DNA of 5,844 bases from a virus (Duplodnaviria > Heunggongvirae > Uroviricota > Caudoviricetes). Positions 189 through 4,322 of this stretch are shown in pieces. The first letter of the stretch is position 1; the number at the start of each line of letters is the position of its first letter. A program made the translations under genes and the position numbers. The notes below the pieces were generated by a model. The model worked only from the letters and a program-made list of their open reading frames with translations, searched no databases and had not been told where the DNA came from. The stretch lies in the IMG/VR virus record IMGVR_UViG_2713896791_000002; one strand, 5' to 3'.

Positions 189-795
189 GAAAGATTCCGG
201 AGACTCNNNNNNNNNNNNNNNNNNNNNNNNNNNNNNNNNNNNNNNNNNNNNNNNNNGGTAGCGCGTCCGCCACCTGATTGCGGACCGCCCACCAGGATAA
301 TTCAGCCAGAGATAATTCCCGTTCCTGTGCACCACTTATTGCGTGACGTATGACGTCAATCATCCAGGCTGTCAGATTTTGTTGAGCAAGCTGCCCGAGT
401 GATTCGGATGTCTGGTCGCGCAGCTGGTTGTCGCAGTGCCAGCACAACACCATTGCGCCGGTACCATAACGGTGAATGACGGTTTCGCTGTGATGATAAT
501 CGCCGTGTGGCCACTGGCAGGATTTAATATGGCGCAACAGCCAGTCAGACAATGCACCAGCACCACCAGCAGCACGAATCACNCGTNCGTNNCTGAAAAA
601 NGGCAGCAATGTTTTGTCTTCCACNAGCGGCTGGCGAACGGCAGGAACNACCCCGGACGGCAGATTACGCATGCTTTTCGGTTCCGGCTCCACCAGTACC
701 CGGGTATTGTGGAATACCGGCATGGATTCACGACCCGGCTTAACGATCACCAGCCCGAGTTCCGGTACCAGAACAGGTCGAAGTAATACCCGCAC
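175..795 (-). CDS. Hypothetical phage protein (about 206 aa); product unknown
   Basis: Long minus-strand ORF with GTG start at 795-793, preceded by GGAGG 4 nt upstream and placed 1 nt after the TAA stop of the upstream gene (coupled arrangement). It crosses ambiguous bases (583-649) and its C-terminus crosses the 50-N gap (207-256), so length and end are uncertain. No recognisable family motif. Confidence 0.4.
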   Translation of the reverse strand: MRVLLRPVLVPELGLVIVKPGRESMPVFHNTRVLVEPEPKSMRNLPSGXVPAVRQPXVEDKTLLXFFXXXXVIRAAGGAGALSDWLLRHIKSCQWPHGDYHHSETVIHRYGTGAMVLCWHCDNQLRDQTSESLGQLAQQNLTAWMIDVIRHAISGAQERELSLAELSWWAVRNQVADALXXXXXXXXXXXXXXXXXXVSGIFHETT

Positions 796-2316: not shown

Positions 2317-2678
2317 GCCGTAGCCCCTTCTTGATATTTTTCAAACCAGAACACAACTGGGTCAGATTTCATTTCAACCAATCCCATACGAACCAGCGCT
2401 TTGCCTTTCCCGGACGCAAGGAATTCACGACGACCATCACTGATAATTCGCCGATAATCTTCCAGACTACTGCAATGCTTGTGCAGATTGCATGGGTGGC
2501 ATGCCGGAACCATGTTGGATATATCGTCACGTTCCTGGTGAAGCATATTTCCATCAAAACGAATGACCGGTTTTACATGGTCTGCATGCCACTTTTCGCC
2601 AAGTTCGCAGCCGCAATAAGCACAGCGACCGCCGAACTTCATGCGCAGCTCTGCACGTTGTTTTTTCGTCAGTGCCAT
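2313..2678 (-). CDS. HNH endonuclease (small, about 121 aa)
   Basis: [38 protein letters not shown]...[14 protein letters not shown]: the canonical CxxC ... HxDH ... N ... CxxC ... H HNH motif. ATG at 2678 is preferred over the track start at 2768 because it sits 1 nt after the upstream gene's TGA, with AAGGAAAG upstream. Confidence 0.85.
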
Positions 2679-2679
2679 A

Positions 2680-2898
2680 TCAGCTTTCCTTATACGGATT
2701 AATTTTATTGTGCAGTGTGCTGAACGACGCCCACACCACGTCGTTATACAATTCAATAACTGGCTCAATTATTTTCACGATAAACCAGACCAGTAATAGC
2801 GGGGGTATCGGTATCATCAACACGATAAATATAATGAGAAACAAAAATTCTGTCGCTCTACTTTTTCTCGGATATTCTTTTCTGAATAATGTAGTCAT
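2680..2898 (-). CDS. Small membrane protein (72 aa, one predicted TM helix)
   Basis: MTTLFRKEYPRKSRATEFLFLIIFIVLMIPIPPLLLVWFIVKII...: basic N-terminus followed by a roughly 25-residue hydrophobic stretch. ATG at 2898 is preceded by the conserved SD-hairpin element; stop is coupled to the HNH start. Confidence 0.6.
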   Translation of the reverse strand: MTTLFRKEYPRKSRATEFLFLIIFIVLMIPIPPLLLVWFIVKIIEPVIELYNDVVWASFSTLHNKINPYKES

Positions 2899-2930
2899 TT
2901 CTTACCGCCCTTTCAGGCGGCCTCCTGATG
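2899..2930 (-). promoter_or_regulatory. Conserved SD + GNRA-tetraloop hairpin translation-initiation element, copy A
   Basis: Minus strand: CATCAGGAGG-CCGCCU-GAAA-GGGCGG-UAAGAA-AUG. AGGAGG is followed by a 6-bp GC-rich stem (one U-G wobble) with a GAAA loop, then 6 nt to the AUG at 2898. Near-identical to copy B at 4019-4051. Confidence 0.5.
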
Positions 2931-2957
2931 TTTTGAGGGTGCAGAAATCCCTCCGGT

Positions 2958-2992
2958 TAAGGATTAAATTTTTAACTAAATTTAATTATTCA
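2958..2992 (-). repeat. AT-rich intergenic linker, copy A (partner at 4265-4322)
   Basis: Plus strand GGATTAAATTTTTAACTAAATTTAATTATTCAGG against GGATTAGATTTTATTTACAGCGCTAAATTTATTTATTCAG in copy B. Both start at the TAA stop of the upstream minus-strand gene and end at a GGAGG. Confidence 0.5.
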
Positions 2993-3621
2993 GGCGCGAT
3001 AAGCTGTTCCGCACAATCCAGCAATGCTTCTGTCGCTTCCTTAAGCGTTACTGTATCGCTATCATCCAGTCCTGCAACTTTTTCGTACCTGACAAACGCC
3101 GCGCAAAGCTCGTTAAACAACCCCGCCCGTACTTCAGCCAGGAAAGCGTCGGTGGCCGGAGTTTCAGGAATCCGTCTCCTCATCCGTTCTATTGCATGAT
3201 TGAACCCGAAATCTTCAGCAAGAGATACGTCATCCATATTGTCATTGTCGTCCTCAATATCCCGTGGTTCTGGAATTGCAGACTTTATTACCGCATTCTC
3301 CGCCGCCAGCGCCACAAGATTAGCTTTCAGCTCTGCAATTCGTTTGTTTTGGGCTTCCCGTTCATCCAGTAGTGCCAGCGCAACATTTGGATTAAAAGCA
3401 GCAATAAATTCAGCGTTTGCATAAGCCTGAACATCTGTTTCAACCAGGCAGTTAACATGACATTCTGCAATTACGCCACCGGGCTCTCCTTTCCATTTTT
3501 GACAAACAAAAACTCCTGTTATATTCCCATGCTGATTGCCCGATGTATGCCCTACGATGTAGCATCCTTTAGTTGCTTTCTCTGCTGCTTCACGCAGCGC
3601 CTGATAGTCAATCTCGCTCAT
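2986..3621 (-). CDS. Ead/Ea22-like family protein (211 aa)
   Basis: N-terminus MSEIDYQALREAAEKATKG..., central coiled-coil-like region (...REAQNKRIAELKANLVALAAENA...) and acidic stretch typical of lambdoid Ea22-like proteins. Shares its N-terminal motif with the paralog at 4649-5110. ATG overlaps the upstream stop (ATGA). Confidence 0.65.
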   Translation of the reverse strand: MSEIDYQALREAAEKATKGCYIVGHTSGNQHGNITGVFVCQKWKGEPGGVIAECHVNCLVETDVQAYANAEFIAAFNPNVALALLDEREAQNKRIAELKANLVALAAENAVIKSAIPEPRDIEDDNDNMDDVSLAEDFGFNHAIERMRRRIPETPATDAFLAEVRAGLFNELCAAFVRYEKVAGLDDSDTVTLKEATEALLDCAEQLIAPE

Positions 3622-3794
3622 TCATCGCCCCACTCATCACAATATGCTTCGACCGGATTTTTTCCTGCTTCATAATCATCACGCCATGCTTCAGCATCAG
3701 CAGCACTGCCACCACGTAACTCTGCATATTCCATTAACAGTTCATGCCATTCTTCAAAACTGACGCTGTATTTAGTTGAACCAAAATCAGCCAT
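3618..3794 (-). CDS. Small acidic hypothetical protein (58 aa); not in the ORF track
   Basis: Manual translation from ATG 3794-3792: MADFGSTKYSVSFEEWHELLMEYAELRGGSAADAEAWRDDYEAGKNPVEAYCDEWGDE, with stop TGA at 3620-3618 overlapping the Ea22-like ATG (ATGA). GAGGAAG SD about 8 nt upstream and an in-frame stop just upstream at 3818-3816. It fills an otherwise unexplained 170-nt space in a tightly packed operon. Confidence 0.45.
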   Translation of the reverse strand: MADFGSTKYSVSFEEWHELLMEYAELRGGSAADAEAWRDDYEAGKNPVEAYCDEWGDE

Positions 3795-4018
3795 TTTGTT
3801 CTTCCTCTTCGTCTTTTATTTCGTGATATGAATAATTGCAGTAGTTAAAGAAAATATCTTTTGCTTCGTCATGTATTTCATCAGGCGTCGCATCNNNNNN
3901 NNNNNNNNNNNNNNNNNNNNNNNNNNNNNNNNNNNNNNNNNNNNTCATCCACTTCGAATTCATCCTCGAAATCTCCACCGGCTATTCCCGTTTCAATAAT
4001 TATTTTAAACTTTCGCAT
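3787..4018 (-). CDS. Small acidic hypothetical protein spanning the 50-N gap (about 75 aa if the gap preserves frame)
   Basis: ATG at 4018-4016 directly after the SD-hairpin element gives MRKFKIIIETGIAGGDFEDEFEVDD...; after the gap the track frame reads ...DATPDEIHDEAKDIFFNYCNYSYHEIKDEEEEQNG. The two parts are in different frames across exactly 50 N, so the true gap length is probably not 50 or there is a frameshift. Confidence 0.4.
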
Positions 4019-4051
4019 TTAACTACCGCCCTTTCGGGCGGCCTCCTGACA
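4019..4051 (-). promoter_or_regulatory. Conserved SD + GNRA-tetraloop hairpin translation-initiation element, copy B
   Basis: Minus strand: UAA-U-GUCAGGAGG-CCGCCC-GAAA-GGGCGG-UAGUUAA-AUG. The whole 33-nt intergenic space between two small ORFs is SD, a perfect 6-bp GC stem with GAAA loop, then 7 nt to the AUG. Confidence 0.5.
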
Positions 4052-4264
4052 TTAATCGTTGTGGTAACTCATGGCTTCATTTGCAACATCAACCGGATCA
4101 ACCTCCCACCAGCAATAATTTGGTGCGTTTCCTTCAGGTGTCCACGGTTCTAATTCATTTTTTGCCGCATTCTCATCGCCAGTAATTTTAAAAATCTGCT
4201 CAGAGAATTTTCTTGCCCACTCGTTATATTTTTCCGCATTAATGGCTTTCTGTGTATTTAACAT
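4052..4264 (-). CDS. Hypothetical small phage protein (70 aa)
   Basis: ORF MLNTQKAINAEKYNEWARKFSEQIFKITGDENAAKNELEPWTPEGNAPNYCWWEVDPVDVANEAMSYHND with GGAGGT 8 nt upstream of the ATG at 4264; immediately follows the AT-rich linker copy B. Confidence 0.5.
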   Translation of the reverse strand: MLNTQKAINAEKYNEWARKFSEQIFKITGDENAAKNELEPWTPEGNAPNYCWWEVDPVDVANEAMSYHND

Positions 4265-4322
4265 AAATATACCTCCAGTTCAGGATTAGATTTTATTTAC
4301 AGCGCTAAATTTATTTATTCAG
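4265..4322 (-). repeat. AT-rich intergenic linker, copy B (partner at 2958-2992)
   Basis: See copy A. Here the linker and its GGAGG lead directly to the ATG of the 70-aa ORF. Confidence 0.5.

Follow-up and report, generated by a model that had tools for sequence, protein, structure and literature searches.

Two genes on the minus strand of a stretch of viral DNA (5,844 nt, record IMGVR_UViG_2713896791_000002; hereafter the window) begin behind almost the same short sequence, in which a Shine-Dalgarno (SD) motif is separated from the start codon by a GC-rich inverted repeat with a GAAA loop. The arrangement raises the question of whether this sequence is a ribosome-binding site in which a folded hairpin bridges the gap between SD and AUG, a linker at which phage genomes recombine, or an RNA element with some other role. 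An earlier note, made from the letters of the window, had located two near-identical elements at 4051-4019 and 2930-2899 (-) and had proposed the first of these readings. Both elements are found there, and here we consider what their anatomy, predicted fold, conservation and genomic junctions imply about their function.

Two copies of one element in an accessory-gene operon

Positions 2600-4300 of the window are 100% identical to E. coli O26:H11 11368 and to many other STEC genomes and, by this sequence identity, the window is a lambdoid prophage of E. coli. The block had been assigned to a lambdoid ea region, which holds for the Stx phage ArgO145 (99.4% identical), where the same genes occupy the ea region, whereas in the closest genome, O26:H11 11368, they lie between replication gene P and rusA, a nin-like position. 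The minus strand carries genes for DUF977 and DUF4406 proteins, an RseB-like ORF, two small ORFs, a DUF7167 gene, a 58-aa ORF, an Ea22-like gene, a DUF4014 gene, an HNH endonuclease gene and one further ORF. A ParD/ParE toxin-antitoxin pair is found on the plus strand at 1142-1767, in the middle of this accessory-gene operon and convergent with the early transcript. Two runs of 50 Ns (207-256 and 3895-3944) are scaffold gaps that replace 199 nt and 1 nt of the O26 genome, respectively, and single Ns at 583-649 suggest a draft assembly. The window also contains a 27-nt inverted repeat (804-830 and 3006-3032, 85% complementary) that joins the DUF968-side region to the 3' end of the Ea22-like gene.

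Read in the 5' to 3' direction of the minus strand, copy A (4051-4019) consists of TGTC, AGGAGG, CCGCCC, GAAA, GGGCGG and TAGTTAA, followed by the ATG at 4018-4016. Copy B (2930-2899) consists of CATC, AGGAGG, CCGCCT, GAAA, GGGCGG and TAAGAA, followed by the ATG at 2898-2896. A repeat finder reports the shared part as a 26-nt direct repeat (4024-4049 and 2903-2928) with 25 of 26 bases identical, and the pattern common to both is TCAGGAGG-CCGCCY-GAAA-GGGCGG-TA (Table 1). When a 24-nt consensus was searched with up to three mismatches, copies A and B were its only matches in the window and 200 dinucleotide shuffles gave none. The flanks of the two copies are unrelated on either side; therefore, the repeat did not arise by segmental duplication. 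The single difference within the stem, a C in one copy and a U in the other, had been recorded correctly, but the C belongs to the copy at 4051-4019 and the U to the copy at 2930-2899, so that the labels given to the copies are reversed if copy A is the first one listed. The two downstream ORFs had been described as an acidic protein and a membrane protein unrelated to each other. This description stands, and the proteins can now be named as DUF7167 (acidic) and DUF4014 (one hydrophobic segment). The start of the DUF4014 gene is confirmed by orthologues that begin MTKI(L/F)RK.

Table 1 Coordinates of the two copies of the element, their parts and the neighbouring features in the window
Feature	Positions	Strand	Description
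Core copy A	4024..4049	-	TCAGGAGGCCGCCCGAAAGGGCGGTA; 25/26 identical to copy B
Core copy B	2903..2928	-	TCAGGAGGCCGCCTGAAAGGGCGGTA
SD AGGAGG, copy A	4042..4047	-	23 nt before ATG
SD AGGAGG, copy B	2921..2926	-	22 nt before ATG
Hairpin A (predicted)	4025..4042	-	Outer G4042-U4025 pair; 5' arm 4041-4036 CCGCCC; loop 4035-4032 GAAA; 3' arm 4031-4026 GGGCGG
Hairpin B (predicted)	2904..2921	-	5' arm 2920-2915 CCGCCU; loop 2914-2911 GAAA; 3' arm 2910-2905 GGGCGG; loop-closing pair is U-G
Spacer A	4019..4025	-	A/U-rich, 7 nt, TAGTTAA; no SD-like motif
Spacer B	2899..2904	-	6 nt, TAAGAA
DUF7167 gene	3787..4018	-	60 aa, acidic; ATG 4018-4016; interrupted in the window by the 50-N scaffold gap 3895-3944
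DUF4014 gene	2680..2898	-	72 aa, one hydrophobic segment; ATG 2898-2896
70-aa ORF (orf70; upstream context U2)	4052..4264	-	TAA stop 4054-4052, 4 nt before the SD of copy A
U1 leader	2929..2985	-	Conserved intergenic sequence after the Ea22-like gene; GGAGGG...CCCUC
Inter-repeat cassette	2929..4049	-	1,121 bp: core, DUF7167, 58-aa ORF, Ea22-like gene, U1; bounded by direct repeats

Predicted fold and the distance from SD to start codon

Folding of both regions, which had been suggested as a check on the proposed structure, predicts a stable hairpin in each that forms on its own. In ViennaRNA models, the sequence between SD and start codon folds into six GC pairs in copy A, or five plus the U-G pair in copy B, with an additional outer G-U pair and a GAAA loop. 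The minimum free energies of 51-nt segments are -16.1 kcal/mol for copy A and -14.3 kcal/mol for copy B, with -14.4 and -11.8 kcal/mol for the respective isolated 18-nt hairpins. When 99 distinct contexts of 152 nt were folded, the stem was paired with a probability of ~1.0 in nearly every one, and RNAalifold applied to 12 different junctions returns the hairpin as the sole consensus structure, with the SD and start regions unpaired. In these models, the hairpin predicted between SD and AUG is stable, local and autonomous.

As had been noted, AGGAGG lies 22-23 nt upstream of each AUG when the RNA is read linearly. Once the hairpin is folded, the effective spacing becomes 7 nt in copy A and 6 nt in copy B, in agreement with the 6-7 nt estimated earlier and equal to the 7 nt that separate TCAGGAGG from the start codon at two ordinary sites of the window. 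These ordinary sites provide an internal control: they consist of TCAGGAGG, 7 nt and ATG or GTG, while the hairpin sites consist of TCAGGAGG, the hairpin, 7 or 6 nt and ATG. Across about nine types of junction, the linear distance from SD to AUG is 22-27 nt and the distance from the hairpin to the AUG is 6-11 nt. The spacers TAGTTAA and TAAGAA contain no GGAG, GAGG or AGGA, and neither ATG has an alternative SD before it. Post-hairpin spacers at the other junctions are A/U-rich and have no SD motif, the only exception being a Q-like gene. This Q-antiterminator homologue (PF06530), which stands behind the core in some prophages (L022, L027 and similar), carries a GGAG of its own, at 7 nt from the ATG. 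DUF4014 orthologues that lack the hairpin, in 933W, epsilon34, ES18 and HK225, instead start at the same protein position behind an AGGAG or GGGGAG at a canonical distance of 5-8 nt. If the bridged motif is set aside, the DUF7167 and DUF4014 genes would be almost the only genes of the operon with no SD, and the predicted element accounts for the failure of start-codon predictors to find one before them. The A/U-rich leaders may permit SD-independent initiation, making the upstream AGGAGG dispensable, and termination-reinitiation could contribute at the site that follows orf70.

Hairpin-bridged initiation has a precedent in phage T4. The gene 38 site that the earlier note had cited is real and, when folded, has the same layout as the element (PMC3014915). 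There, the structure shortens a distance of 22 nt to 5 nt, while at T4 gene 25 it shortens 27 nt to 11 nt, and mutations that destabilise these structures reduce initiation (PMC3014915). The gene 38 start folds in our hands as UAAGGAG, AGGGGC-UUCG-GCCCUU, CUAAAU and AUG. It shares with the element the order of its parts: directly behind the SD comes a GC-rich stem of 6-8 bp closed by a stable tetraloop, and then an A/U-rich spacer of 5-7 nt that leads to the AUG. Its linear spacing of 22 nt compares with 22-23 nt in the window. However, the T4 loop is UUCG rather than GAAA and there is no sequence similarity between the two. Further, the T4 site serves one gene and is backed by mutants, whereas the element is a near-identical repeat before many unrelated genes and is known from its sequence and predicted fold. 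The gene 25 site, an 'accommodated' ribosome-binding site in the account that PMC3014915 gives of Nivinskas 1999 and Malys and Nivinskas 2009, resembles the element in the extent of shortening by a structure of ~16 nt (27 to 11 nt, compared with 22-27 to 6-11 nt at the junctions of the element). In contrast, its stem is AU-rich and weaker, and its conservation is confined to the orthologous site of T-even phages, without portability to other genes. From the anatomy of the element and by analogy with these T4 sites, we infer that ribosomes use the bridged SD.

In the mechanism we propose, the element would act as an independent unit of translation initiation within the polycistronic early mRNA transcribed from the minus strand. 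AGGAGG would pair with the anti-SD of 16S rRNA, and the adjacent 16-nt GC hairpin with its GAAA tetraloop would fold alone and be looped out, which would bring an AUG that is 22-23 nt away linearly to an effective 6-7 nt. When 1.16 Mb of DNA from related prophages was scanned generically for the order SD, hairpin and ATG, no other family of such design emerged. Therefore, the element represents one sequence family and not a general design. On an unrelated phage contig (L194, ~339-359, minus strand), AGGAGG-CCCCCC-GAAA-GGGGGG followed by 10 nt and ATG lies between two tail-like genes; judged from its sequence, this is an independent instance of the same layout with a different stem.

Other roles for a hairpin at this position

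A stable hairpin between cistrons could act on the mRNA instead of on initiation. As an element for mRNA stability or processing, it would block 3'-to-5' exonucleases after cleavage in the A/U spacer, or set differential stability of the cistrons, with the SD being incidental. Such a role is compatible with a stable GC hairpin that has no U-tract and is followed by A/U-rich single strand, which suits RNase E, and with the position of copy A directly behind the stop codon of orf70; the hairpin of contig L194, in an unrelated phage, also lies right behind a stop codon. However, cleavage in the spacer would sever the sole SD from its AUG, and a scan allowing mismatches never found the family hairpin without an abutting SD. 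Copy B is also ~65 nt past the upstream stop codon, yet a tight 6 nt from the next ATG. We regard this explanation as distinctly unlikely, and note that a stability role could coexist with a role as ribosome-binding site, as could a role as protein operator.

The loop of lambda boxB (GCCCUGAAAAAGGGC) adopts a GNRA-like fold, and the element shares with boxB a short GC stem, a GAAA-type loop and a place in lambdoid early transcripts. It might thus be bound by a phage or host protein, such as an N-like arginine-rich peptide or a translational repressor, that co-regulates the accessory genes. An identical hairpin before several genes would suit a regulon, and a position adjacent to the SD is typical of translational operators. 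We nevertheless consider an operator very improbable. The element has a true tetraloop and not the boxB pentaloop, no boxA-like sequence lies upstream, both copies are deep in the operon and far from the promoter rather than proximal to it, and the hairpin always abuts an SD and the start of an ORF. In addition, the loop is not strictly conserved and no candidate binding protein was found. A lambda-type nut site was rejected separately, on the tetraloop, the mid-operon position and the absence of a CGCTCTT-like boxA from either upstream flank; the ArgO145 stretch examined has no annotated N.

The element is also a GC-rich intergenic stem-loop, and GC hairpins with GAAA loops terminate transcription elsewhere, for example on contig L214, where the hairpin is followed by CTTTTTGTT. 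An intrinsic terminator or attenuator between cistrons is scarcely credible here, however, given that neither copy has a U-tract behind it (tails UAGUUAAAUG and UAAGAAAUG). A terminator scan, whose total was at the level of shuffled controls, did not call the hairpin on the sense strand, and the only call in the vicinity is another stem, of 5 bp, on the plus strand at 2913-2928. Two further candidates were rejected. RNase III sites need roughly 20 bp, for which a stem of 6-7 bp is far too short, and a bypass of the T4 gene 60 type would involve matched take-off and landing codons, which are absent.

Conservation, junctions and recombination

The core is widespread in E. coli. Of 5,426 complete E. 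coli genomes, 2,609 contain it by BLAST, with 4,698 matching places in all and up to 8 copies per genome, and among the matches listed no annotated feature of these genomes overlaps it. Among phage records, BLAST finds the core in 28 only, and not in lambda, P22, HK620 or 933W. It is absent from the Rac prophage of K-12, and therefore K-12 functional genomics does not apply to it. A search of the whole window against Rfam (E-value up to 1) returned only a chance miRNA match at 961-1022 and no family match for the element, and the literal core sequence was not found in the literature searched. The Pas sRNAs of EPEC and EHEC prophages were considered and rejected, being encoded in the late region and unrelated to the element.

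An exact scan of IMG/VR with AGGAGGCCGCCNGAAAGGGCGG gave at least 120 matches, and we took the junction contexts from the matches listed. Two upstream contexts are common among these: U1, which follows the Ea22-like gene, and U2, the last codons of the 70-aa ORF. Downstream of the core there are at least six gene families, as would be expected of the portable module that the earlier note had described: DUF7167, DUF4014 (three subtypes), Ea22-like, the Q-antiterminator homologue (PF06530), a family with an MQDIKE start and a 43-aa ORF. The Ea22-like family behind the core (MTELTK or MAELTK start) is named by its N-terminus only and has no Pfam hit. All four combinations of U1 or U2 with DUF7167 or DUF4014 occur, and when different junctions are compared, homology extends no more than 2 nt beyond the 26-nt core in either direction. 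A single core is present on contig L122, and the 400 nt on its two sides match the window at 99% and 100% identity, upstream with the flank of copy A and downstream with that of copy B. Therefore, L122 is the window minus exactly the 1,121 bp between the repeats. Recombinant junctions and the L122 deletion make recombination, which had been listed as an alternative in the form of a linker, the best-documented property of the element, and this property is compatible with a ribosome-binding site. From these sequence comparisons, the element is a recombination junction at a mosaic boundary, and the crossovers appear to lie inside the core, not merely beside it.

Additional observations bear on the neighbourhood of these junctions. 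One further upstream context, on contig L038, was rejected as a ribosome-binding site: at 11454-11475, an exact 22-nt core lies within the coding sequence (QAQEAARKGGNE) of a P2-like small terminase gene (gpM). The Klebsiella phage ST15-OXA48phi14.1 likewise has a 24-nt match (15678-15701, 91.7% identical) inside its small terminase gene. These terminase-gene matches may reflect either coincidence or shared origin. In the window, the HNH endonuclease gene (2313-2678) directly adjoins the DUF4014 gene, an adjacency also found in phage HK225, and in epsilon34 an HNH endonuclease gene lies ~1.3 kb upstream in the same ea block. HK225 and epsilon34 are both without the core, and a free-standing nuclease could add to local mosaicism.

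The two upstream contexts differ in the predicted accessibility of the SD. U1 provides about 65 nt between the stop codon of the Ea22-like gene and the core, and its GGAGGG...CCCUC sequence is predicted either to form a 5-bp hairpin with itself or to pair, through CCCUC, with the SD of copy B. In these models the probability that the SD is unpaired is ~0.2-0.6 behind U1, compared with mostly 0.64-0.83 behind orf70 (one outlier at 0.2). The SD behind U1 is thus predicted to be partly sequestered by CCCUC, and U1 may constitute an SD/anti-SD arrangement. A second motif, TAATCCTKAACYGGAGG, is common to two sites on the minus strand, 2952-2966 and 4274-4288 (TAATCCTTAACCGGA and TAATCCTGAACTGGA). 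The copy at 4288-4274 forms the ribosome-binding site for the 70-aa ORF, with GGAGG, 8 nt and the ATG at 4264. The copy at 2966-2952 lies within U1, has no start codon downstream and resembles a stranded ribosome-binding site fused upstream of core copy B. In copy A only, at 4023-4052 (-), the stop codon of orf70 shares bases with an ATG (TAATG). A mini-ORF of 9 codons (MSGGRPKGR, then stop) begins at this ATG, crosses the SD and hairpin and ends at a TAG 4 nt before the DUF7167 ATG. The U1 context has ACA where copy A has the ATG of the mini-ORF, and most junctions retain TAA or TAG directly 3' of the hairpin.

The conservation of the core was assessed in an unbiased sample, anchored outside the core, of 138 copies representing 22 haplotypes. 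Of 23 columns, 13 vary, yet no haplotype departs from GGAG. Covariation in related prophages, another check proposed earlier, was no better than in controls: 91.6% of cells are paired in the 22 haplotypes and 91.5% in shuffles, with one double change, among copies too alike to give the comparison much power. A search of 185,579 species genomes for the U1 anchor located it in no species other than E. coli and Shigella, apart from three MAG contigs, two of which (L125 and L129) share the anchor 19-mer alone, and therefore there is no cross-species divergence from which to measure covariation. The earlier note had taken the U-G wobble in copy B to argue for selection on structure. This argument does not hold, as the difference is one C-to-T transition, which is the commonest type of mutation, and A also occurs at that position.

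Uncompensated breaks in the stem, which had been named as evidence against a selected structure, do occur, at low frequency. In a scan of all IMG/VR for changes at the stem G, an A.C mismatch is found in 25 copies and the compensated A-U pair in 7 copies of the same lineage, with folding energies of -9.0 and -12.9 kcal/mol for the A.C and A-U forms, respectively; one series from G-C through A.C to A-U is seen. Breaks of the closing pair and one doubly mismatched haplotype also occur, and the 138-copy sample includes the non-GNRA loops GGCA (4 copies), UAAA (1 copy) and AAAA (2 copies). The arms of the stem differ in the changes they carry. C-to-U changes in the 5' arm each reach about 14% of copies (19 of 138) and are wobble-compatible only in the sense RNA. 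In contrast, a pair-breaking change at the partner G in the 3' arm (column 19) is found in no family copy in all IMG/VR, and the next 3'-arm position (column 18) is changed in five IMG/VR copies, all of one doubly mismatched haplotype. This asymmetry is suggestive of purifying selection on an RNA stem in the sense strand, although it derives from very few mutational events and is not significant, and a transcription-linked C-to-T bias could contribute to it.

These patterns also bear on whether the 26 bp might be kept only as a crossover point, with the hairpin and AGGAGG having no translation role and the genes being started through A/U-rich leaders or coupling. Such a pure boundary linker would explain the recombinant arrangements and the precise deletion derivative on record, the lack of significant covariation, the persistence of variants with broken stems and altered loops, and a core that is near-identical everywhere, as homogenisation by recombination predicts. 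However, a linker could do without a perfect GC stem, a stable tetraloop and a consensus SD, and it would not lead one to expect an invariant GGAG in a core where most columns vary, nor high-frequency stem variants that are all wobble-compatible, and in the sense RNA only. It would also leave the downstream genes almost alone in the operon in lacking an SD, whereas their hairpin-less orthologues have one. We consider a pure linker unlikely. The explanation that we favour, and which we judge to have a little better than an even chance of being correct, is that the element is a hairpin-bridged ribosome-binding site of the T4 gene 38 type that is also a conserved recombination boundary, the latter because it is identical before many genes.

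The same 26 bp before different accessory genes would offer a short identity for crossover by a phage or host recombinase, and would mark the boundary at which the lambdoid prophages of E. coli acquire, lose and swap cassettes. Short conserved boundary sequences in lambdoid phages were discussed by Susskind and Botstein and, for HK620, by Clark et al. 2001, both as cited in PMC3029335. As that citing paper describes them, they are like the element in being short conserved blocks at gene boundaries with non-homologous modules on either side and recombinants seen; the element differs in having an evident RNA-level design. A more specific and tentative proposal, which we think could be correct but would not presume to be, is that the 26-bp unit is the joint of cassette exchange by homologous recombination. 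Each accessory gene would then carry, or land behind, a structure-insulated ribosome-binding site, the hairpin would keep SD and AUG free in any context, and cassettes recombined by Red or RecET would be expressed at once.

The element is a new case within two known kinds, the bridged ribosome-binding site and the boundary sequence, and not a new kind. If ribosomes do use the bridged SD, it would be the first such site outside the T-even phages in the literature searched, and also the first that is portable and present in multiple copies, a natural design for a context-independent ribosome-binding site. Lambdoid mosaicism is shaped by conserved boundary sequences that have long been debated, and the element would also be a concrete example of these, defined at the level of sequence, for which precise recombinants are already present in databases. 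If the 26-bp unit is indeed a joint for cassette exchange, translation design and genome mosaicism would be joined in a single element that is present in about half of complete E. coli genomes.
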